Shown here: piece by piece, positions 5,694 through 59,473 of the stretch | Layout: each line of letters starts with the position of its first letter | How positions within the stretch are numbered: the stretch's first letter is position 1 | Assembly: GCA_964648795.1 (NCBI GenBank) | Contig: CAZYMB010000005.1 | Coordinates: 44,345 to 108,344, forward strand | Reading direction: 5' to 3' | DNA length: 64,000 nt | Source: an uncultured Acidimicrobiaceae bacterium | GTDB lineage: Bacteria > Actinomycetota > Acidimicrobiia > Acidimicrobiales > SZUA-35 | The notes under the pieces: generated by a model | Seen by the model: only the letters and a program-made list of their open reading frames with translations | The model's database searches: none | Told to the model about the DNA's origin: nothing | Made by a program: the position numbers and the translations under genes

Positions 5694-6374
5694 TTACTCG
5701 TAGTTTCCTCTGACCTCGTCGCGAATGAGCTGTCCTTCAGAAAGCTCGATAACACGTTTGCGCATGGTATCTACAATGCCCCTATCATGAGTTGCCATAA
5801 CAACGGTTGTACCAGTTTTGTTGATCCGGTCAAGTAAGCGCATGATACCAATCGAAGTTTGAGGGTCCAAGTTACCGGTTGGTTCGTCGGCAAGCATTAT
5901 TAGAGGACGGTTTACGAAAGCTCGTGCAATCGATACACGCTGCTGCTCGCCACCAGAAAGTTGATCTGGATACTTGTCCATCTTGTCTTTGAGGCCTACA
6001 AGTTCGCAAATAACTGGAACTTGTTTGTTAATGAGCTTCTTACTGCCACCAATAACTTCTAAGGCGAATGATACGTTTTCGAAAACTGTTTTATTTGGGA
6101 GCAACTTAAAGTCCTGAAAGATCGAGCCTATGTTGCGTCGCAAGAGAGGCACCTTCCAAGGTGACAGCTTTGCAATGTCTTTACCAGCTACAAAGATGCG
6201 TCCACGATCTGGGTCTTCTTGTTTGGTGAGGAGTCGCAACATAGTTGACTTGCCGGATCCAGATGGGCCGACTAGAAATACGAAATCTCCCTTGGAGATA
6301 TCAATGTCAGCCTGATTCAGGGCAGCACGCGCTTGTCCCTCGTACCTTTTCGACACGCCCTCAAGTCTTATCAT
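5694..6374 (-). CDS. ftsE: Cell division ATP-binding protein FtsE
   Basis: GPSGSGKST Walker [31 protein letters not shown]. Start moved to MIRLEG at 6374. Confidence 0.95.
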
Positions 6375-6488
6375 TAGAACAAAACCACCCCAAAATGTGT
6401 ACCCACAGCGTACCTCATACACCGCCTAATTTGGCGAAATAGTCCAAACGGACCCACCACAAACGCCCGAATTGACCGATCCTAAAGT

Positions 6489-7193
6489 ATGGAGACGAAC
6501 ACTCAGGCCCACAATGGCTCTGAACAGCTTAAAAACAGCTTCCAAGCTATTGCTCTTGCCGCTCGCCAATTTGTCGAGCAAAGTTCCAAAGAGTCCTATG
6601 CAGAACTAGACCTTAGTGCAGAAGAGCTAAATAGGGCACAAGATTTCTTTACTCACAATACGCAGATTTCGCCTACTGATTTCTGGGACACTACTGCAGC
6701 GTTGCGCTCATCCTTATTGTCAAAAGCTCTGCTAAACATCGTCGATGAATCTCGTAGCTCGATTATCGAACAGCTAACCGCTGCAGCTGCGCAAGGAACA
6801 CAGCATAGCCTCAGCGAAGTTCCGGCCGAACAAATACTAATGACCGGCGGGGACCTTCAAATTCAGGAACTGACTCCCACTCAGGCCTTTACCCACAGCC
6901 TTAACTCTATTTACCGGCCAATAACTGATTACAACCAGATCGACAGAGTTGGCGATCTTTGGCAGACGCAGTTACACAACGAAGCGTTAAACCTGGCACG
7001 GGAATCGAGGAGTGAATCTAATGCAGACTTTATCTTGGAAGTCCAATTAGCTGAAACCACTCTCATGGTAGATGCCCCTTGGATTTACACTGACCGCTTA
7101 CTTTGTGCTTTTGAGCTTGCCCACAAAAAGATTCAGAAGCACACTCAGCAGACTAAGCAAACACTGACAACGGTCTTTGAAGATCTCTTGTAG
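6489..7193 (+). CDS. Hypothetical protein (234 aa)
   Basis: Long ORF in the gap divergent from ftsE, helical composition, no motif recognised. Confidence 0.65.
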   Translation: METNTQAHNGSEQLKNSFQAIALAARQFVEQSSKESYAELDLSAEELNRAQDFFTHNTQISPTDFWDTTAALRSSLLSKALLNIVDESRSSIIEQLTAAAAQGTQHSLSEVPAEQILMTGGDLQIQELTPTQAFTHSLNSIYRPITDYNQIDRVGDLWQTQLHNEALNLARESRSESNADFILEVQLAETTLMVDAPWIYTDRLLCAFELAHKKIQKHTQQTKQTLTTVFEDLL

Positions 7194-7204
7194 CATCGCT
7201 ATTA

Positions 7205-7483
7205 GTGCTTCTGATTTCGATACTACTTTTAATCCTTGGGTACTCTCTTGTGCTTCCCGCTATGGCGAAGTATTCAACATTGCTAACCCAGAAGACTAAT
7301 GTCGGGCGCTTATGGCTAGTGGCTCACCAATTGGGTCTCTTGATTGCTGCTTTGGGCTGGGCACTTCGAAGACAACTTTGGCTAGCGGTCGGCCACGTGT
7401 TAGTAGCGCTTATCCTAAAGTACTTTTTTGATTCTCAACAACGGCGCCAACAGACGCAGCAACCTTCCCAGCGTGATGGCTAG
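7205..7483 (+). CDS. Small membrane protein (about 3 TM)
   Basis: Hydrophobic segments. TAGCAT-N8-GTG leaderless-type start. Stop overlaps the lipA 3' end. Confidence 0.6.
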   Translation: MLLISILLLILGYSLVLPAMAKYSTLLTQKTNVGRLWLVAHQLGLLIAALGWALRRQLWLAVGHVLVALILKYFFDSQQRRQQTQQPSQRDG

Positions 7484-9113
7484 ATCGAGTCAATGGGGTT
7501 GCTTCAACATGGCTTATCCCAACGGACTCCCCATATTCTTTGAGCTCAGTAAACTCAGCGGGAGTCACCCAACGAGAAATTGGTAGATGGTGACTGGTGG
7601 GACGCAGGTACTGGCCGATCGTCGCAATCTTTACGCCAACGTTCGCTAGATCACGCAAGGTAGCTTTTACTTCTAGCTCAGTTTCACCCATTCCTAAGAT
7701 GAGGCCAGACTTGGTAACCATCCCGGCCTCTGCCCCCCTAGCAAGTAATGCCATCGACCGGTTATAGCTAGCCGAGGGACGCACTGCTCTCTGCAGGCGA
7801 GCTACGGTCTCAATATTGTGATTTAGAATCTCTGGCCTGGCACTCATTACAGTTTCTAACGATGATCGCTCACCTGCTAAATCGCTAATTAGAACTTCTA
7901 CCCCAACGCCTGGACACTGCTTGTGAATCTGATTGATGGTGTCGGCAACTATTGCGGCTCCACCATCGGCCAAATCGTCTCTAGCCACCATTGTCAGTAC
8001 TGCAAAGTCAATTCCTAGGTCCGTAACTGTGTTTGCAACTTTAACTGGCTCATCTAGATCGATCGCTCCGGGCTTTCGAGTATCCACCAGACAGAACCCG
8101 CAGGCACGAGTACAACGCTCCCCTAACAGCATGAATGTAGCCGTGCCTTCATTCCAACATTCATAAATGTTTGGGCACCCAGCCGATTCACAAACTGTCG
8201 CTAGGTTTAATTCAGAGCTGCGCTTAGCAATTTTCGAGTAGTTCTCGCCAACGGTAAACTTAACTTTCATCCACTCAGGCTTGCGTTCCGATATCTGCAG
8301 CCCTTCTGTGACACCGGCTGTCGAAAGCCTGCTCTTAAGACGGACTGAGACCCCATCGGGCTCTGGTTTGATTGGTTCGCCTGGTCCTGCACCTGAGGAG
8401 AACAAACTTAGATCAACGCTATGGTTGTTGTGCACTACTCCTTCATAATGCGTTTCACCGGTACCTAATAGCGCAGTGCCAACTTTGCTTACGATTAGGT
8501 CCGCAATCGTTTCCATTGAAACATCTATGCCCAATTCGGCGAGCGAGGTTACACCCTTGTCTTCGATGCCACATGGGATGATTTTTTCAAACCATGAAAG
8601 ATCGGTTGAGACGTTGATAGCGAAGCCATGCATCGTTCGGCCCCGTGATTGCCTCACCCCTATGGCGGCAACCTTTTGCGGGTTCGAACCAGCTGTCCAA
8701 ACGCCGGGTGATCCTTTGATTAGCTGCGTTGCGCATCCGAGTTCTTCTAGGACAGATATGACCAGCTTTTCTATCGAGGAAACATAGCTGGCAGATCCGA
8801 AAGTTGTGCCATCTTCCAAAGTGACTATTGGATAGCCAACTAGCTGGCCAGGACCATGGAAAGTGACATCTCCACCCCGCCGAACCTGCTCGACTGGAGC
8901 GCCCAGCTGTTCACGAGGTTTCCTAAAGTTGGTACTACCTCGTACACCTATTGTGTAAACAGGCTCATGTTCGCACAACAATAAATAGTTGGCTCTGCCA
9001 GAAAATAGTCGCTTCTGAAGATCAAGGGTCTCTAAGTACTGCGTCTTCCCCAGCCAGCGAGCCTCAAGAACCCGCCCAACTGATTCGCTACCCGAGCTCT
9101 GATTCCCAGTCAC
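7410..9113 (-). CDS. lipA: Fused octanoyltransferase LipB - lipoyl synthase LipA
   Basis: N-half has LipB motifs (CEHEPVYTIG, RGGDVTFHGPGQLVGYP, KVAAIG, HGFAIN, IIPCGI). C-half has CESAGCPNIYEC, CTRACGFC and RSSHHA. The nearest in-frame GTG (9113) overlaps the dlaT end, so the start is uncertain. Confidence 0.93.
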   Translation of the reverse strand: MTGNQSSGSESVGRVLEARWLGKTQYLETLDLQKRLFSGRANYLLLCEHEPVYTIGVRGSTNFRKPREQLGAPVEQVRRGGDVTFHGPGQLVGYPIVTLEDGTTFGSASYVSSIEKLVISVLEELGCATQLIKGSPGVWTAGSNPQKVAAIGVRQSRGRTMHGFAINVSTDLSWFEKIIPCGIEDKGVTSLAELGIDVSMETIADLIVSKVGTALLGTGETHYEGVVHNNHSVDLSLFSSGAGPGEPIKPEPDGVSVRLKSRLSTAGVTEGLQISERKPEWMKVKFTVGENYSKIAKRSSELNLATVCESAGCPNIYECWNEGTATFMLLGERCTRACGFCLVDTRKPGAIDLDEPVKVANTVTDLGIDFAVLTMVARDDLADGGAAIVADTINQIHKQCPGVGVEVLISDLAGERSSLETVMSARPEILNHNIETVARLQRAVRPSASYNRSMALLARGAEAGMVTKSGLILGMGETELEVKATLRDLANVGVKIATIGQYLRPTSHHLPISRWVTPAEFTELKEYGESVGISHVEATPLTRSSHHAGKVAASVGAVVENQKSTLG

Positions 9114-50383: not shown

Positions 50384-51106
50384 ATGACTACAACACTCGA
50401 TGAAAACAACGGATCTGGAAAGCTCTTTGCGCTAGCAATTCTTGCCCTCGTGGCTGCCGGAATCGTGGGCGTTATCTTTGCTGCTCAGGGGCGTGCCGAA
50501 CTTCCACCACAAGTAGCTCTATCAGAAGCAGCTCCCGCAATTGAGGGTATCGAAGAGTTCGAGACAATCAGTGGTGTCCCATTTGATCCGACATTTCCAC
50601 AACTAGTAGTCGACGGAGATCCGCTTCCCCCACTAATAGACTCAGCGACCGACGAATTTGTTGGAACTGAGTTCCCAACAATCACAAGCACCAATTTTGA
50701 GGGTGAAGAAGTCTCCATTGAAGCAGACGGACGAGCCAAGGTTATCTACTACCTAGCCCACGGCTGCCCTTTCTGTCAGGCCGAAGTTCCCGAAGTAATT
50801 GACCTAGTTGAAGAAGGCCTACTACCTGAAGATCTAGACATCTACGGAGTCGTAACTCTGACAGACCCCGGCCAAGGAGAATACCCGCCAAGTGCCTGGC
50901 TCGAAAATGAGAACTGGGATTTCCCAGTGCTTCTAGACGACGATGTCGCTACAGCATTTAACGCAGCAGGTTCAACGGGTACGCCGTTTATCGTTGCCTT
51001 AGATGGAGACAACAATATTCTTGCCCGAGTGTCAGGTCGAATTCAGCCAGCAGAAGCTGTAGTTACCTTCTGGGAAGAAACTGCCGCGTCTGAATCTGCT
51101 GGCTAG
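50384..51106 (+). CDS. Membrane-anchored thioredoxin-like (TlpA/DsbA-type) oxidoreductase
   Basis: GGAGGT SD, N-terminal TM, AHGCPFCQAEVP, GTPF cis-Pro loop. Confidence 0.88.
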   Translation: MTTTLDENNGSGKLFALAILALVAAGIVGVIFAAQGRAELPPQVALSEAAPAIEGIEEFETISGVPFDPTFPQLVVDGDPLPPLIDSATDEFVGTEFPTITSTNFEGEEVSIEADGRAKVIYYLAHGCPFCQAEVPEVIDLVEEGLLPEDLDIYGVVTLTDPGQGEYPPSAWLENENWDFPVLLDDDVATAFNAAGSTGTPFIVALDGDNNILARVSGRIQPAEAVVTFWEETAASESAG

Positions 51107-51142
51107 ATCTATTTTATTGACCGCCAGGTAGGATCACTTTAG

Positions 51143-51763
51143 ATGGCTAACAAAGAAATACCACTAACTGTTTCTCCCGCTGCACTCGACGTTGTCCTAG
51201 AAACACGATCACTAGAAGAAGACCCAGAACGCTCGGCACTAGCAGTCTCAGTTTCTGGCGCCACGATGACAGAGTTCATCTACGAACTAGAGATTGTCCA
51301 CTTAGACAATGTTGCCGCAGATAGCGCTGTATACACCCAAGGCGAACATGATGAGCTTAGTGTTGTAGTCCCGAAGGACTCGGCTGAAGTTCTGAATGGA
51401 GCCGAACTTGACATTGCACAAGGCACAACAAACGGACTAGTAATACGCAACCCAAACAAGCCGGATCCACTGTTTGGGAAAGAACTAAATCTTGAAGGCT
51501 CTCTGGCAGATCAGGCGAAGCAAGTTCTAAACGAAGCAATAAACCCAGCACTAGCTTCGCACGGCGGCTTCGCCGAACTCGTCGGCGTATCTGATGAGAA
51601 CATTGCCTTTGTAACTATGGGCGGTGGTTGCCAAGGCTGTGCAGCCAGTGCAATGACCCTTCAAGATGGCATCAAAACAATGCTTATGGACGCCTTGGGT
51701 GAGTTAGTAGACGTCGTTGATTCAACCGACCATTCGGCCGGAGAAAATCCCTTCTACACTTAA
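51143..51763 (+). CDS. NfuA-like Fe-S carrier (degenerate HesB N-domain + NifU C-domain)
   Basis: INPALASHGGFAELV, MGGGCQGC. Confidence 0.92.
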   Translation: MANKEIPLTVSPAALDVVLETRSLEEDPERSALAVSVSGATMTEFIYELEIVHLDNVAADSAVYTQGEHDELSVVVPKDSAEVLNGAELDIAQGTTNGLVIRNPNKPDPLFGKELNLEGSLADQAKQVLNEAINPALASHGGFAELVGVSDENIAFVTMGGGCQGCAASAMTLQDGIKTMLMDALGELVDVVDSTDHSAGENPFYT

Positions 51764-51779
51764 TCTACGCCAAGGACTG

Positions 51780-53330
51780 TTAGGGCTGCTGAAGCGTAGG
51801 CCTTGTGGAATCCAGGTCAAACCAACGCTCTGGGTCCATCTCGTTAGCCGGCGTTGGCACAGCAAAGAAATAGCCTTGAACGTTGTGAACGCCCAAGCTC
51901 AATAAGGCTCGTAATTGTTCTTCGGTCTCGACTCCTTCGGCAACAATATTAAGATCCAATGCTTTGGCCATAGTCACGATTGCTTCAATTATTGCTCGGT
52001 CAGCGTCACTGGAGTTGATATCAGTTACAAACTTTTCGGCTATCTTGAGCGTCGAAACCATATCAAGTTCTTTAATTGAGTTAAGTGATGACTGTCCAGT
52101 TCCAAAATCATCAATTGCAAGGTTGATTCCAAGGTCACTTAGAGATCGAAGCTTCGCCAAGTGGTCACCCTGTCCAATAATAATGTCCTCAGTAATTTCT
52201 AGAATCAGCTGTGATGGCTCCAAACCTGCCCAGCCCAAGATCTCCATTACTTGATACTGAAGGTTAGGGTCGACGAGCTGTGGTTCTGAAAGGTTGATAC
52301 TCATCTTTACATTCTGAGCACCACCGGCAATGTGGTTCCACAAAGCAGCCTGTGTACAAGCTTCACGCATAACTATGTCAGATATCTTTCCTAACATGCC
52401 CGCTTCGTTTGCTACATCTAAGAAACCACCAGGGGTAACGATTCCGGTTTCAGGGTGCCGCCAACGAACTAGCGCCTCGAATGCATAAAGGTTCTCGTTA
52501 GCCAGGTTTACGATTGGCTGGTAGTAGACAACAAACTGGTTCTCTTCGAGAGCGGTTGCAAGGTCACGCTCAACTTCTAGACGCTGAACACTCAATTGGT
52601 GCTGTTTCTCGTCAAACACTGCGTAACCAGAACGTTCTCTCTTGGCTTTGAACATCGCTGAGTCAGCATCTCTTACAAGGTCTGCGGAACTAACGTTTTC
52701 CTGACCTTGGTAGATCGCAATTCCAATACTCGTAGCAGCCAAATGTGTTCGACCTCCCAGTATTACTGGTTCGGCGAAAGACTTAAGAATCGAATTAGCT
52801 ACTGAGATAACTGAGTCACTTGAAAGCAGCCCTCGAGACAATATGACGAATTCGTCTCCGCCAAAACGTGCAACTACGTCAGTCGAACGCACTGATGCCT
52901 TAAGTTTTTCCGCAACAATCTGAAGAAGTTGGTCGCCAACATCGTGGCCCATCGTGTCGTTAATAACCTTAAATCGGTCTAAGTCCAAGAACAACACACC
53001 GAGCACAAGGTCGTTTCGTTCTGCGTCCTCGATAGAGGTCTCGAGCTCATTCATTAGACCTGAACGGTTGAGGAGTTGTGTTAGCGGGTCGTGAATTGCT
53101 TCGTGTTTTGCCTCTGTAGCTTCCAAGTCGACAGCTTCGTACTTGGATAGGACACCAACTGAACCTATGCAAAAGCCAATCAGAGTGATAACCACGGCAA
53201 GTACGGCAGTCCAAAGACCACCAACGAAATCACTAAGAAAAACTTGTCCAGCTACTACACCAATACAGCCAAAAACCAGTCCCCAGGCAAGCATCTGGAC
53301 GATTGGTTTTCGGGTAGGAACTTGCGCCAT
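51780..53330 (-). CDS. Membrane-bound GGDEF-EAL diguanylate cyclase/phosphodiesterase
   Basis: 2 TMs, HDPLTQLLNR, DLDRFK.INDT.GH..GD, RFGGDEF, YYQPIV, FEALVRW, LEITE, IDDFGTG, VAEGVETEEQ, QGYFF. Confidence 0.95.
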   Translation of the reverse strand: MAQVPTRKPIVQMLAWGLVFGCIGVVAGQVFLSDFVGGLWTAVLAVVITLIGFCIGSVGVLSKYEAVDLEATEAKHEAIHDPLTQLLNRSGLMNELETSIEDAERNDLVLGVLFLDLDRFKVINDTMGHDVGDQLLQIVAEKLKASVRSTDVVARFGGDEFVILSRGLLSSDSVISVANSILKSFAEPVILGGRTHLAATSIGIAIYQGQENVSSADLVRDADSAMFKAKRERSGYAVFDEKQHQLSVQRLEVERDLATALEENQFVVYYQPIVNLANENLYAFEALVRWRHPETGIVTPGGFLDVANEAGMLGKISDIVMREACTQAALWNHIAGGAQNVKMSINLSEPQLVDPNLQYQVMEILGWAGLEPSQLILEITEDIIIGQGDHLAKLRSLSDLGINLAIDDFGTGQSSLNSIKELDMVSTLKIAEKFVTDINSSDADRAIIEAIVTMAKALDLNIVAEGVETEEQLRALLSLGVHNVQGYFFAVPTPANEMDPERWFDLDSTRPTLQQP

Positions 53331-53435
53331 CCTTTCCTAACGGCTCTTTAGAGCAATTTCTTAGCTTAAAGAGTCAAATTAACCTCTACCGATTGACTAC
53401 TTTTGGCCGATACTAAGTATTGGAAGTGACTATTT

Positions 53436-54203
53436 ATGGGCAATCAGATCCAAAACCCGGAAAATGCCAGATATTCACGCCATGCTGACCTGACTCTTGC
53501 ATTCAACATCTTTGGAGAGGGAATGCGTGAATTCGTCGAAGACGAAATGACTCTACATCTCGAAAGCGAGGAGTGGTTTGGAGAAGCCGCAGCAAAGCTC
53601 GGCCGCTCAGCGCAACACGATGCCTCGGATCCTTATTTCCAGCTTCTTGTCCTTAAACGATTCTGGGGACCAGTTTTTTCCAAACGGTACTCAGAAGACT
53701 TGAGACCAGTGGTCGATGAGCTAGTCGAGATAAGAAACCTATGGGCTCACTTCTCGATACCTGGTGACGTCGATAAGTTGGATCGTGCAGTCATAATTAT
53801 GGAAAGACTCCTAGCCCCGATTAATGCTGACGCTGCAGTAGCCGTACGCTCGGTTAGATACCGACTCAAGCACCCCCGCACGGGAGAAACCCCTGAGCCG
53901 ACCGAAGAAGAAAAGTTAGCTCTACGAAACAAGCTTGACTTAGCCAGAGAAAAAGTAGAGAACATAAGTCAGCATAACTCGCAGCTGTCTACTCAACTTG
54001 CTCACACTCGTAGGATCTCAGCAGGCAAACAACTGAAACTGAGCGGCCTTGAGAACCAGTTGGTTGATATTCAATCTAAGGCTGATGCCCTCGAAGATCA
54101 CTTACGTGAGCAACGGAAACGACATGATCGTATCGAATGGCTCTTTGCTGCATTCTTACTCTGCTTCTTGCTAGCAGTGTTGATTACTTCTGGCCTTGGC
54201 TAA
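53436..54203 (+). CDS. Swt1-like HEPN domain protein with coiled coil and C-terminal TM anchor
   Basis: L....F.E.MR.FV, W, DPY..L......W..VF, V.EL..IRNLWAH (RxxxxH at 53733-53750), D...RA....ERLL..I. Then heptad-like segment and WLFAAFLLCFLLAVLITSGLG. Confidence 0.8.
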   Translation: MGNQIQNPENARYSRHADLTLAFNIFGEGMREFVEDEMTLHLESEEWFGEAAAKLGRSAQHDASDPYFQLLVLKRFWGPVFSKRYSEDLRPVVDELVEIRNLWAHFSIPGDVDKLDRAVIIMERLLAPINADAAVAVRSVRYRLKHPRTGETPEPTEEEKLALRNKLDLAREKVENISQHNSQLSTQLAHTRRISAGKQLKLSGLENQLVDIQSKADALEDHLREQRKRHDRIEWLFAAFLLCFLLAVLITSGLG

Positions 54204-54269
54204 GTTCGCCAAATCAGGTCCGGGACGTCTAACCAACAGCACCAAAGTATCGACTAAGCTCTTCGGGGT

Positions 54270-55400
54270 ATGTCAGCTGCTACAACCACTCCATCAAAAG
54301 CTCCTAAATGGGTGAAATCTGCGATTACCTATTGGTGGGTTGTAGGCGCAGGTATCTTATTCACCTACTGGGTTGCTAATACCCTGCGCAGCCTTTTGAT
54401 TCAGCTGATTATTGCTTTGTTCTTAGCTCTGGCCATGCATCCACTGGTTGAGCGGCTACACAAACGAGGTATGAAGCGCGGCTTGGCAACGGGCATAGCA
54501 ATGCTTCTTGTCTTTGCCTTCTTTGGCGTATTCATTGGAGTAATGGGCAACTTAGTCGTTAATCAGCTGAGGGATCTAATTAATGAGATCCCTGGCTATA
54601 CAACCTCTATTTCTCAATGGTCTGAATCCACCTTTGACTTCACAATTGATGCAGACGAAGTAACCGATCAGATTCAAGACCGACTTGGTGGCTCGATCGA
54701 CACTATTGCCAACTCAGCACTCAACTTCTCTGGAACAATTGTTGGACTTTTATTTCAGGTGTTAACGGTTTCGCTGTTTGCGTTCTACCTCTCCGCAGAT
54801 GGACCCAAACTCAGACGCGTAATGTGTTCTCTATTTCGTGAAGAGAAACAAGTCGAAGTTATTCGAATCTGGGAACTAGCCATTGACAAAACAGGAGCAT
54901 TTATTTCCTCTCGAGTAATTCTGGCAATCGCCTCAGCTGCTTTCCACGCTCTCGTGTTTTGGATAGTCGGGGTACCTTCACCGATCGCCCTTGGAATTTG
55001 GGTCGGCATTGTTTCTCAATTTGTTCCAGTGATTGGTACCTATATCTCTGGGATCTTGCCGGCTTTGATTGCACTGGCAGATAATCCGATCAATGCTCTC
55101 TGGGTTGTCGCAGTAATTCTGGGATACCAGCAGATTGAGAACTATCTGCTTCAACCACGCATAACAGCACAAACCCTAAATATGCACCCCGCTATTGCTT
55201 TTGGAGGGGTGCTAGCTGGCTCGAGCCTTCTTGGCGCTACTGGCGCTGTCTTAGCCCTCCCATTCATTGCCACTGCACAAGCCGTTATGGACACCTATGT
55301 AGACCGCCACAACGTTATAGATTCCGAACTCTTAGATAGACGCTCTGCAGAGCGTAACCATGAAGAAGACCCTGAAGAGACCTCTGATAGCGAGGAATAA
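54270..55400 (+). CDS. AI-2E family (PerM/TqsA) transporter
   Basis: Multi-TM, F.PVIGTY, YQQIENYLLQPRI.A..L.MHP, LG..GA.LALP. Confidence 0.92.
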   Translation: MSAATTTPSKAPKWVKSAITYWWVVGAGILFTYWVANTLRSLLIQLIIALFLALAMHPLVERLHKRGMKRGLATGIAMLLVFAFFGVFIGVMGNLVVNQLRDLINEIPGYTTSISQWSESTFDFTIDADEVTDQIQDRLGGSIDTIANSALNFSGTIVGLLFQVLTVSLFAFYLSADGPKLRRVMCSLFREEKQVEVIRIWELAIDKTGAFISSRVILAIASAAFHALVFWIVGVPSPIALGIWVGIVSQFVPVIGTYISGILPALIALADNPINALWVVAVILGYQQIENYLLQPRITAQTLNMHPAIAFGGVLAGSSLLGATGAVLALPFIATAQAVMDTYVDRHNVIDSELLDRRSAERNHEEDPEETSDSEE

Positions 55401-55439
55401 CTTGCTATAGAACCTCTTAACGAATTACACTGACCTACC

Positions 55440-56078
55440 GTGACAGCAGCAACCCTTCCTCAGCCCGTTCTAATCGACTTAGTCGCCTCCAAGCGCTTCC
55501 TAGGTATCAACCTACGCAGCCTGCTAGGCGTTACATTCTTTGCAATGCTGACAGCAGTACTCGCACAGGTTTCAATCCCGTTGTCGTTTACTCCTGTACC
55601 AATTACTGGGCAGACATTAGCGGTCCTACTTTCCGGTGCAGCTCTCGGACCAAGACTCGGATCAGCGTCCCAGCTTCTATACATTGGCCTTGGGGCAGCA
55701 GGCTTTTCTGTATTCGCCGACCGAGGAAGTGGCATCACAAGCTCCGGACCAAACGGCGCTGAGCTAATTCCGACATTTGGATACCTGGTCGGTTTTGTGG
55801 TCGCAGCGTACATAGTTGGCGTCATGGCAAAAAGAGGACAAGACCGATCGGCATTCTCAGCGATCCCAGCATTCCTTGCCGGCAGCGTTGTAATCTACAT
55901 CTTTGGTGCAACATTTCTTAGCTACTCATTAGATGTTCCATTTGCAGCTCCGCTAGATGAAGCCAGCGCCCTGGCCTTCGGTATTGCTCCATTTGTTATT
56001 GGGGATGTTCTCAAGGCGCTTGTTGCAGGTTTAGCTCTGCCAGCAGCCTGGAAGCTCTTTGGTTCTAGCTACAGCTAG
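55440..56078 (+). CDS. bioY: Biotin transporter BioY
   Basis: AQVSIPL..TPVPITGQTLAVLLSGA.LG, Y...GA.GF.VFA, PTFGYL.GF, PFVIGDVLK. Confidence 0.95.
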   Translation: MTAATLPQPVLIDLVASKRFLGINLRSLLGVTFFAMLTAVLAQVSIPLSFTPVPITGQTLAVLLSGAALGPRLGSASQLLYIGLGAAGFSVFADRGSGITSSGPNGAELIPTFGYLVGFVVAAYIVGVMAKRGQDRSAFSAIPAFLAGSVVIYIFGATFLSYSLDVPFAAPLDEASALAFGIAPFVIGDVLKALVAGLALPAAWKLFGSSYS

Positions 56079-56134
56079 CCACGTCGACTAAACTCGATTG
56101 AAATAATAAATAGCAAAGAGGTGTTAACTAAGTT

Positions 56135-56380
56135 ATGTCTAATTCTGTTGATTTTTATTGGAGACCAGGCTGCCCATTTTGTATGATGCTCGAGAAGGGC
56201 CTAGAGAAAAAAGGCATCGAGATGGTCAAGCACAACATCTGGGAAGATTCGAAGGCTGCCGATTACGTGCGGAGCGTAGCTGATGGAAATGAGACGGTAC
56301 CAACGGTTAAGATTGGTGAGCAAGTCCGAGTAAATCCAAGTGCGCGTGAAGTCGAGAAGCTCCTAAAAAAGGAGAGCTAG
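56135..56380 (+). CDS. Glutaredoxin/mycoredoxin-like protein
   Basis: YWRPGCPFC, NIWED..AA..VRSVADGNETVPTV, NPS. Confidence 0.9.
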   Translation: MSNSVDFYWRPGCPFCMMLEKGLEKKGIEMVKHNIWEDSKAADYVRSVADGNETVPTVKIGEQVRVNPSAREVEKLLKKES

Positions 56381-56514
56381 ATACTAGCTTCAACAACCTC
56401 GAGGCACGCTCAACAAGAATCTTGCTGTTTCGTTTGAACTCCTTCGCAGGCCGCGCTAATGTGCTTATGGCCTCAGCGTCGAGGGCGAAGAGCTGAAATA
56501 GTTAGGAAAAGCCT

Positions 56515-56754
56515 GTGTCCCAAGCAAACGATCGTAAAGCCCTCCATGCATACCTTAGTGACGAGGCACACGATAAGTGGCACGGTTTCGCTGCCGAGCA
56601 AGGCGTTAGCGTCTCCGCAATGCTTGAAGCTCTCGCTCCGGAACTCAACCTAGAGGGCAAACTCACTCATGAAGAACTTGGTGAACGCCTTAACATAGTT
56701 GTTAAGTCTGCCCGAAAGATCGATGCAGACCGTCGGCGACGCAAAAAAGCATAG
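56515..56754 (+). CDS. Small ribbon-helix-helix-like DNA-binding protein
   Basis: Strand RKALHAYLS, helix DEAHDKWHGFAAEQ, G-VSVSAMLEAL helix, basic tail RRRRKK. Confidence 0.65.
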   Translation: MSQANDRKALHAYLSDEAHDKWHGFAAEQGVSVSAMLEALAPELNLEGKLTHEELGERLNIVVKSARKIDADRRRRKKA

Positions 56755-56824
56755 CCCTCGAGTCTTCGCCTATTTAAATCGATAAGCACAGGCATACTAG
56801 AAGCCTGCCTAGTCATTCCATTTA

Positions 56825-57715
56825 CTAAGAGAACGCCTGCCACCAACCAGCGGCACCAACGAGTCCCACAGAGTCTCCTATTTCGGCGCTGAGGACTTTT
56901 GCTGGCTTCACACCCTTAGGGCCAAACTCGTTAAGTAGCTTTTCAATTCGAGGCAGAACCAAGTCAGCATTAAGGCCGACTCCCCCTCCAATTACAACAG
57001 CTTGAGGAGCATACAACCAAGCCAGGTTTACAATTCCTGCAGCTGCACCCATGATGCCTTTGTCAAAAACTTTGGTAGCTACTTCATCTCCGTTTTGAAC
57101 CAGCTCAACCAGTTCTTCTGTAGTTACTTCTAGTCCAGCAGCCTTTGCTTGCTCGGCTAAATTTGGACCCGAACCTAGCATCTCTGGGGTGTGCCGATCT
57201 CCTGACATAGCAGCCCCTATATCGACCATTACATGGCCTATATCATTTGCTGCATACTTGCCGTGGACAAGTTTGCCACCCAGGACTACCCCACCACCAA
57301 TACCGGTTGAAATGGTGACGTAGACAATGTCGCTGTAACTCTTTCCCGCTCCAAAGGCTGACTCTCCTACTGCCGCCAAATCAGCGTCATTTGCGAGACT
57401 AACCTCTAGCCCGCTTCTAGCTGAAATCCATTGAGCAGTAAGCGATGGAATCCAGCCTTGGGGCAGATTTGGCACATAGACAGCTCTTTGTAATTCGTAG
57501 TCGATGATCCCTGGAATGCCGACTACAACTTTGGTTGCGTCGAAACCCTTTGTCACCTCTGCAATACCTGCAACTACGATGTCTGGAAACTCTTCTGCAT
57601 GGTTGGTTCTTTCTTTGACCTGATGAAGGATCTCCCCCGTACAGCTGACCACAGCCGCTCTACAATTTGTTCCACCAAGGTCTATTGCTACTGTATTTGG
57701 TTCTTCCACACCCAC
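56825..57715 (-). CDS. ROK family sugar kinase (glucokinase-like)
   Basis: IDLGGTN, GIPG, NLP, ANDADLAAVGE..FGAG, TISTGIGGG, IGH. The Cys-rich zinc motif is absent. Start is probably GTG at 57709. Confidence 0.92.
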   Translation of the reverse strand: MGVEEPNTVAIDLGGTNCRAAVVSCTGEILHQVKERTNHAEEFPDIVVAGIAEVTKGFDATKVVVGIPGIIDYELQRAVYVPNLPQGWIPSLTAQWISARSGLEVSLANDADLAAVGESAFGAGKSYSDIVYVTISTGIGGGVVLGGKLVHGKYAANDIGHVMVDIGAAMSGDRHTPEMLGSGPNLAEQAKAAGLEVTTEELVELVQNGDEVATKVFDKGIMGAAAGIVNLAWLYAPQAVVIGGGVGLNADLVLPRIEKLLNEFGPKGVKPAKVLSAEIGDSVGLVGAAGWWQAFS

Positions 57716-58564: not shown

Positions 58565-59473
58565 ATGTCAGTAGACAAATTGACAATACTGGGGACTGCT
58601 TCGCACCTCCCTACTAGAAATAGAGCTCACAACGGCTATGTGGTCGATATAGGCGGCGTTCGTCTACTCTTTGACCCTGGCGAAGGCACACAACGTCAAC
58701 TCACCATTACGGGTGTTTCAGTCACCAGCATCGATGGCGTTTGTCTTACCCATTTCCACGGAGACCACTGCCTTGGGCTACCGGGAGTGATTCAGCGTCG
58801 TTCGGTAGACAACCACCAAAACAACGTCGACCACGAGCTGCCCGTGGTATTTCCAAAAGAAGGCTTCGATTACTTTAACAGGCTGCGTTATGCGACGATT
58901 TATACTGATAGCGCCCATGTAGTACCTATACCAACCACAGATGGCGACGCCACCAACATTGGTTCATGTAGCGTAGTTGCAAAGTTACTAAACCACAGCT
59001 GTACAACACTTGGCTACAGAGTAACTGCTCCGGATAGCTTCAACTTCGATGTAGAGCGACTTGAGCATGCAGGAATAACTGGTCAAGATCGTGCCGAGTT
59101 AAAGGCAACTGGCAAACTCTCTACACCCAATGGTGAAGTCCAACTAGAAGACTTTGGCAGTGTCAAACCAGGCAAGGTGGTTGCCTTCATTATGGACACC
59201 GCACCATGCGACAATGCCATAGAGCTGGCTAGAGACGCTGACTTGGTCATATGTGAGTCAACTTATGCTGAGACAGAATCCGAACTTGCCAGCCAGTATC
59301 TACACATGACGGCCAAACAAGCTGCCGAGATAGCCCAGACAGCAGACGCCAAGAAACTTGTTCTAACCCACTACTCCGCCCGTTACGAAGACGAACAAAT
59401 TCTGGCCAAAGAAGCCAAAGAGGTCTTCAGCAACAGCATTGCCGCTAAAGACCTCGATGTAATAACTTTCTAA
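58565..59473 (+). CDS. rnz: Ribonuclease Z
   Basis: LGT.S..PT..R.HN, FDPGEGTQRQ, THFHGDHCLG, LNH...T.GYR, DTAPC, ESTY, HMTA..AA, THYSARY. Confidence 0.95.
   Translation: MSVDKLTILGTASHLPTRNRAHNGYVVDIGGVRLLFDPGEGTQRQLTITGVSVTSIDGVCLTHFHGDHCLGLPGVIQRRSVDNHQNNVDHELPVVFPKEGFDYFNRLRYATIYTDSAHVVPIPTTDGDATNIGSCSVVAKLLNHSCTTLGYRVTAPDSFNFDVERLEHAGITGQDRAELKATGKLSTPNGEVQLEDFGSVKPGKVVAFIMDTAPCDNAIELARDADLVICESTYAETESELASQYLHMTAKQAAEIAQTADAKKLVLTHYSARYEDEQILAKEAKEVFSNSIAAKDLDVITF

Follow-up and report, generated by a model that had tools for sequence, protein, structure and literature searches.

A tail-anchored HEPN_Swt1 protein of Acidimicrobiales, a putative membrane ribonuclease associated with a GGDEF-EAL gene and sigma-28/WhiG-type promoters

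Analysis of a window of 64,000 nucleotides (nt) from an uncultured Acidimicrobiaceae bacterium (assembly GCA_964648795.1, contig CAZYMB010000005.1, positions 44,345 to 108,344 of the forward strand) revealed an ATG-started open reading frame (ORF) at window positions 53436 to 54203, forward strand, encoding a protein of 255 amino acids (aa) with an N-terminal HEPN domain, a long coiled coil and a C-terminal hydrophobic helix. With a probability of about 0.55, this protein is a tail-anchored, coiled-coil-dimerised HEPN endoribonuclease of the Swt1 clade, acting as an RNA-level output of a lifestyle programme of WhiG and cyclic di-GMP (c-di-GMP), and not as an abortive-infection toxin. The coordinates of the gene agree exactly with those in a preliminary description of the same DNA. 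Its features are as follows.

53436–54203, forward strand: complete gene of the HEPN/coiled-coil/C-terminal-anchor protein, stop codon included (ORF list; 32 homologue clusters of ~255 aa; orthologues in 59 genomes)
53457–53870, forward strand: HEPN domain, aa 8–145 (PF18731 match, AlphaFold2 domain model, most conserved part)
53733–53750, forward strand: Rx4H catalytic-type motif R100-N-L-W-A-H105 (invariant in 32 of 32 homologues; RNxWAH also in a sister family and in distant Swt1-HEPN relatives)
53871–53903, forward strand: flexible Pro/Glu-rich linker, aa 146–156 (low model confidence, lowest conservation)
53904–54128, forward strand: coiled-coil stalk, aa 157–231, about 11 nm if fully extended (AlphaFold2 helix, heptad test)
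53997–54053, forward strand: polar stalk motif L188..R192..A196-x-K198-Q199-L200-x-L202..E206 (columns invariant or at least 90% conserved)
54129–54200, forward strand: juxtamembrane R232-x-E234-W235 and C-terminal transmembrane (TM) helix, or tail anchor, aa 232–255 (only hydrophobic segment)

The Pfam family PF18731 (HEPN_Swt1) matched aa 22–129 (nt 53499–53822, profile positions 2–114 of 115) with a score of 58.5 bits and E = 1e-15, the gathering score being 27.5. A homologue search among 5.8 billion proteins yielded 32 clusters, nearly all of 250–260 aa, and PF18731 is pre-annotated on all of them. In the alignment of these 32 sequences, R100, N101, W103, A104 and H105 are invariant, as is the HEPN core D65-P66-x-F68-Q69-L70-L71...R75-F76-W77-G78-P79-x-F81...D88-L89-R90. 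Profile and motif place the protein in the Swt1 clade of HEPN domains, and the fact that RNxWAH is invariant speaks for catalysis. Mean pairwise identity falls from a maximum of 0.60 in the HEPN domain to a minimum of 0.26 in the linker, the length of which differs among homologues. All other Pfam and NCBIfam matches were sub-threshold and fell on the coiled coil (weak TIGR04211 and SMC), and neither DUF499 nor any other ATPase domain was found in the Pfam scan of the 255 aa.

In the stalk, hydrophobic residues of aa 160–231 follow a heptad pattern, the observed value of which was reached by 1 of 5000 column shuffles of the alignment. The heptad register shifts between the two halves of the stalk, and the shift coincides with the conserved polar motif L188..E206. 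A related motif, GRxRAVARQLAELQ, is carried by the sister family, and the polar motif has been lost from the outlier P0038 (locus L058). The sole hydrophobic segment, aa 231–255, reaches a Kyte–Doolittle maximum of 2.62 over 19 residues and ends 0–3 residues from the C-terminus in 32 of 32 homologues. It is preceded by a basic stretch (REQRKRHDR) and the conserved R-x-E-W; by the positive-inside rule, the basic stretch suggests an N-in topology, in which the HEPN domain and the stalk would be cytoplasmic, with nothing exposed outside. The protein has neither an N-terminal signal nor any TM helix besides the one at its very C-terminus, and its bulk is predicted to be cytoplasmic, so that it appears to be a tail-anchored membrane protein.

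The full-length AlphaFold2 model, built with the family alignment, has a predicted local distance difference test score (pLDDT) of 86.5. The N-terminal domain is represented by helices 8–42, 47–54, 66–75, 77–81, 90–104, 112–126 and 131–145, followed by the linker 146–156, with the lowest block pLDDT (68) besides the disordered N-terminus, and by an uninterrupted single helix of aa 157–254. The HEPN domain modelled alone is likewise all-helical (pLDDT 88, predicted template modelling score 0.82). A parallel coiled coil formed by the long helix makes dimerisation of the HEPN domains plausible. The architecture outlined in the preliminary description, namely, a Swt1-like HEPN domain with an intact motif at the N-terminus, then a coiled coil and a single C-terminal hydrophobic helix without a periplasmic domain, is borne out by the profile score, the motif invariance, the model, the heptad test and the 0–3 trailing residues.

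A scan of one genome per GTDB species detected the gene in 59 species genomes, all metagenome-assembled genomes of Acidimicrobiales/Acidimicrobiia, at one conserved locus; a survey of this architecture and its synteny in Acidimicrobiia had been proposed in the preliminary description. An exhaustive search with hidden Markov models of 1.84 billion representative sequences returned about 8 full-length representatives of the family, and the full-length architecture was confined to it and to a sister family of ~300 aa (P0041, P0042, P0044, P0045 and P0048), with a HEPN domain of the RNxWAH type, a longer coiled coil and a terminal TM helix. The sister family is the more abundant of the two in metagenomes, with more than 327 clusters, and all of its source names are Acidimicrobiales or Acidimicrobiia. 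More distant matches were N-terminal HEPN_Swt1 domains of much larger proteins, mostly DUF499 AAA+ ATPases, in agreement with the earlier remark that Swt1-like HEPN domains are typically fused to defence ATPases. Within Acidimicrobiales, the HEPN/coiled-coil/anchor gene belongs to the core genes and is inherited vertically, unlike a mobile defence gene. The four sister family loci with assessed neighbourhoods are as follows.

7001–7900 of locus L060: sister family gene
7001–7960 of locus L061: sister family gene
6001–6939 of locus L062: sister family gene
6001–6888 of locus L063: sister family gene

Directly upstream of the HEPN gene and divergent from it lies a second conserved gene, separated by a short intergenic region.

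51780–53330, reverse strand: membrane GGDEF-EAL protein of 516 aa, probable diguanylate cyclase/phosphodiesterase (Pfam GGDEF and EAL)
53331–53435, unstranded: divergent intergenic region of 105 bp, common to the HEPN and GGDEF-EAL genes (start-codon spacing)

An orthologue of the GGDEF-EAL gene was found upstream of the HEPN gene and divergent from it in 57 of the 58 assessable loci, directly adjacent in 55. Immediate neighbours from other families occur in at most 20 loci each (SDR in 20, DUF3097 in 6, AI-2E in 4, M50 in 3). The start codons are an estimated 90–260 bp apart in 55 of 57 loci. Both flanks of the pair have been rearranged several times while the pair persists: the lineage of the window has NifU upstream and AI-2E downstream, and the flanking blocks have changed places in seven or eight loci, as though the pair had been inverted as a unit. 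Pairwise identities of the HEPN protein and of its partner are correlated (Mantel r = 0.74, 0 of 2000 permutations), which fits vertical co-inheritance of the two genes. The sole exception is locus L058 (2989–6738), in which the diverged HEPN gene of P0038 has no partner and adjoins genes of SbcD/Mre11-like and HerA-like ATPases.

In the swapped group (L026, L033, L038, L041, L045, L046, L053 and L056), the breakpoints of such an inversion would lie exactly at the edges of the pair, with genes of M50 peptidase, glutaredoxin (Grx) and a conserved 79-aa protein on the GGDEF-EAL side and DUF3097, GDSL and ABC-F genes on the HEPN side. The same context was sought for the sister family and rejected, since GGDEF-EAL is absent from 4 of 4 loci; upstream of the sister gene were found cysS (2 of 4 loci), an M3 peptidase gene or an alpha/beta-hydrolase gene.

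The partner retains the motifs GGDEF (52 of 52), EAL (about 50 of 52), DDFGTG (51 of 52) and the RxxD I-site (51 of 52), and on account of these conserved catalytic motifs it is probably an active c-di-GMP enzyme. It has N-terminal TM helices in a poorly conserved TM region, and no recognisable sensor domain was found in it.

The conserved locus bears on the view that the protein is a stand-alone abortive-infection or toxin effector, silenced at the membrane until phage or envelope damage releases cutting of tRNA, rRNA or mRNA and shutdown of the cell. Most characterised prokaryotic HEPN proteins are indeed toxins or defence effectors (PMC3710099), and the relatives closest in sequence are found in DUF499 defence ATPases, as their N-terminal HEPN modules (bioRxiv 10.1101/2025.10.09.681413). 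The protein has also retained its catalytic motif, and a membrane anchor could sense envelope perturbation. However, no relevant match to PADLOC defence models was found, none of 50,697 phage records contained a match to the family, and no plasmid among 72,556 carried the full architecture, the sole plasmid matches being remote HEPN matches in DUF499 proteins. No antitoxin-like, defence, mobile-element or sensor gene lies beside the HEPN gene in the window or in the 59 loci, and the protein itself has no sensor domain. One order-wide locus with a co-diverging neighbour is the opposite of the patchy, island-borne distribution of defence genes. A toxin role is regarded as improbable on these grounds, and the option of phage-triggered dormancy, offered in the preliminary description, has no support, given the vertical inheritance at one syntenic locus and the lack of phage and PADLOC matches.

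The intergenic region contains sequences resembling promoters of the sigma-28/WhiG class. The published consensus sequences are -35 TAAA and -10 GCCGATAA for flagellar sigma-28, common to WhiG (PMC8325347), T(A/C)AA-N16-GCCGATAA for WhiG2 and CTCA-N16-17-GCCGAACT for WhiG1 (PMC12871210). In an unbiased count, the 8-mers TAACGGCA and GGCCGATAG occurred in 45 and 42 of the 57 regions, respectively, with at most 29 in shuffled controls. Both are variants of the core TGCCG(A/T)TA, each oriented in the sense of its own gene, with a CTCA(A/G)G box 14–15 nt upstream of each core. On the HEPN side, CTCA-N16-17-GCCGA was found in 33 of 57 loci (shuffle mean 0.14, maximum 2; 0 in coding controls of the same size). 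In the sense of the partner, (CTCA or TMAA)-N15-17-GCCGT was found in 38 of 57 loci (shuffle mean 0.28, maximum 3) and the GCCGA form in 3 of 57 (shuffle mean 0.32, maximum 3), so that the partner side overall carries a mostly GCCGT-type pattern in 41 of 57 loci, with at most 5 of 57 in the corresponding shuffled controls.

Regulon membership was defined by a two-part promoter with a -35 box CTCA or T(A/C)AA, a spacer of N16-17 and a -10 box GCCGA(TAA) within 200 bp of the start codon. The strict consensus has a density of 1.65 per kb per strand within the intergenic region, compared with 0.036 elsewhere (679 kb of loci), a 46-fold enrichment. Upstream of the HEPN gene it is also present in L003, L018 and the partner-less L058 (CTCA-N17-GCCGA in the latter). 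In the sister loci, a GCCGA box lies 8–15 nt before the start codon in 4 of 4 loci, with the strict two-part pattern in 0 of 4. The partner-side -10 box ends 7–12 nt before the start codon across loci, a distance which suggests a leaderless or near-leaderless partner mRNA. The corresponding sites of the window are as follows.

53406–53412, forward strand: GCCGATA, -10-like, 24 nt before the HEPN start codon; the -35 position is CTAC, a poor match
53338–53364, reverse strand: CTAA-N16-GCCGTTA in the sense of the GGDEF-EAL gene; the box 53338–53344 ends 7 nt before the ATG

No sigma-70-like promoter was detected in the intergenic region in a scan of 53200–54400, and no sigma factor was found among the scanned ORFs of the window. 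Over the whole window, enrichment of the two-part pattern is not significant (5 found, 3.2 expected). WhiG-type promoters often precede genes of diguanylate cyclases or phosphodiesterases (5 of 12 mapped in Rubrobacter radiotolerans), and the c-di-GMP-dependent anti-sigma factor RsiG was reported in 3 of 4 Acidimicrobiales species examined (PMC8325347). Both genes of the pair are predicted to be read from sigma-28/WhiG-class promoters in most species, and their dependence on WhiG may be supposed from the consensus. The divergent GGDEF-EAL partner and these promoters had been overlooked in the preliminary description, which had correctly recognised the core-gene setting.

In the sub-clade of loci L009, L016, L020, L023 and L024, the promoter is more distant from the HEPN start codon, and its -10 box stands inside a perfect palindrome, TTTCGG-CCGATA-CCGAAA, about 95–150 nt upstream of the HEPN start. 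The palindrome may serve as an operator or form an RNA hairpin that overlaps the promoter.

The promoter type and the persistence of the pair also bear on the proposal of a constitutive housekeeping membrane ribonuclease for RNA decay or quality control, an analogue of RNase Y, Ire1 or C6orf70, for which the adjacency of GGDEF-EAL would be meaningless. Core-gene behaviour, a single syntenic locus and vertical inheritance are in its favour, as are the membrane tether and stalk, resembling RNase Y in reverse order, and the sister family, which has the architecture without GGDEF-EAL and follows cysS in two of four loci. Membrane HEPN ribonucleases at the inner face have also been predicted (PMC3710099, section 15). 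However, a sigma-70-type promoter would be expected for such a gene, and promoters in most orthologues are of the sigma-28/WhiG class; moreover, the adjacency of the partner has survived several independent rearrangements of both flanks. Restriction of the family to a single class also rules out a universal decay enzyme. A housekeeping function, directed at mRNAs translated at the membrane or at membrane-bound ribosomes, is considered unlikely.

The fixed GGDEF-EAL partner and the promoter type make a role linked to c-di-GMP and WhiG the best-supported context of the tail-anchored ribonuclease. In HEPN ribonucleases, dimerisation creates the active site between a pair of Rx4-6H motifs, and the manner in which the domains meet usually controls activity (PMC3710099). 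In the proposed mechanism, the C-terminal helix would be seated in the cytoplasmic membrane, and the parallel coiled coil, about 11 nm long, together with flexible linkers, would hold two cytoplasmic HEPN domains side by side, so that the paired Rx4H motifs could form a composite active site. Regulated RNA cleavage on the cytoplasmic side of the membrane would then be one of the outputs of the WhiG/c-di-GMP lifestyle switch. The stutter motif of the stalk and R-x-E-W at the membrane interface are candidate sites of control or of contact with a partner. As no antitoxin is present, the safety of the ribonuclease must come from elsewhere; it might be provided by spatial restriction through the tether, by stalk geometry, by substrate specificity, or by a ligand, second messenger or partner protein.

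A closer coupling, in which the HEPN protein would be the RNA effector arm of the sigma-WhiG/c-di-GMP switch, connected to the diguanylate cyclase/phosphodiesterase at the membrane through c-di-GMP, pGpG or direct contact, is put forward tentatively, as an unlikely refinement; the two proteins would be co-expressed from their common WhiG-type promoter region. If true, it would mean that a second messenger directly gates a HEPN ribonuclease without a CARF or SAVED sensor domain, and would represent a developmental, non-defence use of a bacterial HEPN ribonuclease.

The fixed pairing with an apparently active GGDEF-EAL enzyme is also compatible with a HEPN domain that acts on nucleotides of the c-di-GMP pathway or senses them, by cleavage of pGpG or binding of c-di-GMP, or with a non-catalytic RNA-binding scaffold. 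Some HEPN domains of type III CRISPR ribonucleases also cut cyclic oligoadenylates, which counts for a nucleotide-directed role. A non-catalytic one would agree with the fact that some HEPN domains are binders without catalysis (PMC3710099). Nevertheless, no known c-di-GMP-binding motif was recognised, the RsiG-type motif E(x)3S(x)2R(x)3Q(x)3D was not found in the stalk by eye, the invariant RNxWAH motif points to catalysis, and the sister family lacks the partner. Such roles are judged very unlikely.

The reading of the protein as a WhiG/c-di-GMP-linked membrane ribonuclease has several observations against it. Foldseek searches with the full-length and domain-only models against PDB, and with the domain-only model against BFVD, gave no match at E ≤ 0.001, the non-significant matches being globin or phycobilisome-like helical proteins; sequence and profile searches of PDB sequences gave coiled-coil noise or nothing, with no solved related HEPN of the Swt1 clade. 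The HEPN assignment consequently rests on the sequence profile and the motif, and the HEPN fold of the domain appears neither confirmed nor contradicted by the structure searches. The window and its closest relatives, L001 and L002, keep the -10-like boxes and lack the strict two-part pattern. The partner-side -10 box is GCCGT, not GCCGA, whereas high conservation of the central CGA in known targets has been described (PMC12871210). The sister family without a GGDEF-EAL neighbour indicates that the partner is not essential to the architecture. The wider neighbourhood is also fairly syntenic, so that part of the linkage between the HEPN and GGDEF-EAL genes could be inertia.

The neighbourhood of the pair in the window (~39–64 kb) is represented, in gene order, by M23 peptidase, MoaC, MoeA, two TldD/PmbA proteins, Dxs, DsbB, a redoxin, NifU, the GGDEF-EAL and HEPN proteins, an AI-2E transporter, BioY, glutaredoxin, the conserved 79-aa protein, ROK kinase, SURF1, a metallo-beta-lactamase (MBL) fold hydrolase, RecA, an aminotransferase, CinA and PgsA. 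Every Pfam-identified gene there is housekeeping, besides a few ORFs that lack a Pfam match, which upholds the earlier observation that the HEPN gene is embedded among core genes with no antitoxin adjoining. Recurrent neighbours in other loci are genes of an ABC-F ATPase, GDSL hydrolase, DUF3097, SDR, M50 peptidase, AI-2E and Grx, as well as a B12-binding regulator and topoisomerase IV/gyrase subunit A. An Rfam scan of 51000–57000 at E ≤ 1 returned nothing, and no terminator was detected in the 66-bp gap between the HEPN and AI-2E genes in the scan of 53200–54400.

The 79-aa protein (window 56515–56754, forward strand) has no Pfam match, is 65–97% identical across the order and travels with Grx. 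A box, CCGCCGCA, is conserved about 25–30 nt before its start codon in many loci. Its gene was considered as a further WhiG target and rejected, a WhiG-type promoter being present upstream in just 5 of 47 loci. A gene of M50 peptidase (site-2 protease family) was found near the pair in 43 of 60 loci, usually 1.5–3.5 kb downstream of the HEPN gene (loci L004–L059), and is absent from the window. Because proteases of the M50/site-2 type cleave single-pass membrane proteins, release of the anchored ribonuclease by intramembrane proteolysis is conceivable. The MBL-fold hydrolase (window 58565–59473, forward strand) shows sub-threshold similarity to the anti-Pycsar protein Apyc1 (30.5 bits, cut-off 50) and is probably a generic enzyme of the metallo-beta-lactamase fold.

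To our knowledge, the bacterial HEPN ribonucleases described so far are nearly all toxins or immune effectors, namely, Cas13, Csm6, Abi proteins, toxins of toxin-antitoxin systems and HEPN-DUF499 proteins. Here, a known enzyme domain is found in an undescribed architecture, absent from the reference survey of the HEPN superfamily, with a genomic context linked to a second messenger and not to defence. The family has an intact motif and behaves as a core gene, occupying one conserved locus across an order, immobile and free of an antitoxin. If the proposed function is true, the protein would be a bacterial counterpart of the membrane-tethered eukaryotic HEPN ribonucleases (Ire1, C6orf70), would add an RNA-degrading output to actinobacterial c-di-GMP/WhiG signalling, and would raise the question of how a potentially lethal ribonuclease stays safe without an antitoxin. 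It would also offer a first functional entry point into Acidimicrobiia, a class that is abundant and little represented in culture.

Among known systems, the closest in sequence are the HEPN-DUF499 AAA+ ATPases (Ava_2192 type; HmaC of the Hma/type-1 BREX-related systems), which share PF18731 in an N-terminal HEPN domain, the RNxWAH motif and the DPxF...W...VF core. The DUF499-HEPN fusion was first noted by Anantharaman et al. 2013 (PMC3710099); DUF499 proteins belong to Hma or 'BREX-related type 1' defence systems (bioRxiv 10.1101/2025.10.09.681413), and DUF499 ATPases are described in the literature as related to BrxC/PglY yet distinct. Unlike the protein of Acidimicrobiales, they have an ATPase body of ~900 aa and are encoded in defence loci with methyltransferase and helicase-nuclease neighbours, whereas in the present case the HEPN domain is followed by a coiled coil and an anchor only, and the gene is vertically inherited among core genes in one class, outside the DUF499 group. 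HEPN-MNT and other HEPN toxin-antitoxin pairs share the small HEPN protein and the intact Rx4-6H motif; here, in contrast, no MNT or antitoxin gene is adjacent, no mobility was observed and a stalk and an anchor are added, which sets the protein apart from such pairs.

Three groups of bacterial TM-associated HEPN proteins were described in 2013 (PMC3710099, section 15), similar in the predicted cytoplasmic HEPN domain on an inner-membrane protein, one of the groups being from the Abi2/Swt1 family. Their architectures are an N-terminal WP-TM with a DUF4145 HEPN, a helical domain with TM and C-terminal HEPN, and HEPN with two TMs and a Zn ribbon; compared by published descriptions, none of them combines a HEPN domain at the N-terminus with a long coiled coil and a terminal anchor without an external part. 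No paper combining 'HEPN' with 'tail-anchored' was found in the literature searched. In its proposed function the protein most resembles membrane-tethered endoribonucleases, namely, RNase Y of Firmicutes, Ire1/RNase L with the KEN domain and C6orf70. In these, too, one TM helix keeps the nuclease at the membrane, and a coiled coil or a dimerisation element controls or positions it; KEN and C6orf70 are themselves HEPN domains (PMC3710099). RNase Y differs by KH/HD domains, an N-terminal anchor and no sequence relationship to the HEPN protein. Ire1 differs by a kinase and a lumenal sensor, both absent here. With respect to all of these enzymes the domain order is reversed, the anchor of the present protein being at the extreme C-terminus.

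With regard to regulation, the comparison is with the RsiG/c-di-GMP-controlled WhiG/FliA regulons of Actinomycetota. The main text of the two regulon papers lists no HEPN ribonuclease among the predicted WhiG targets, the term HEPN being absent from PMC12871210, and Acidimicrobiales are mentioned in them once, for RsiG distribution (PMC8325347, PMC12871210). The likeness to these regulons consists in the promoter consensus at orthologous loci and in the frequent presence of diguanylate cyclases and phosphodiesterases among the predicted targets (PMC8325347, PMC12871210).

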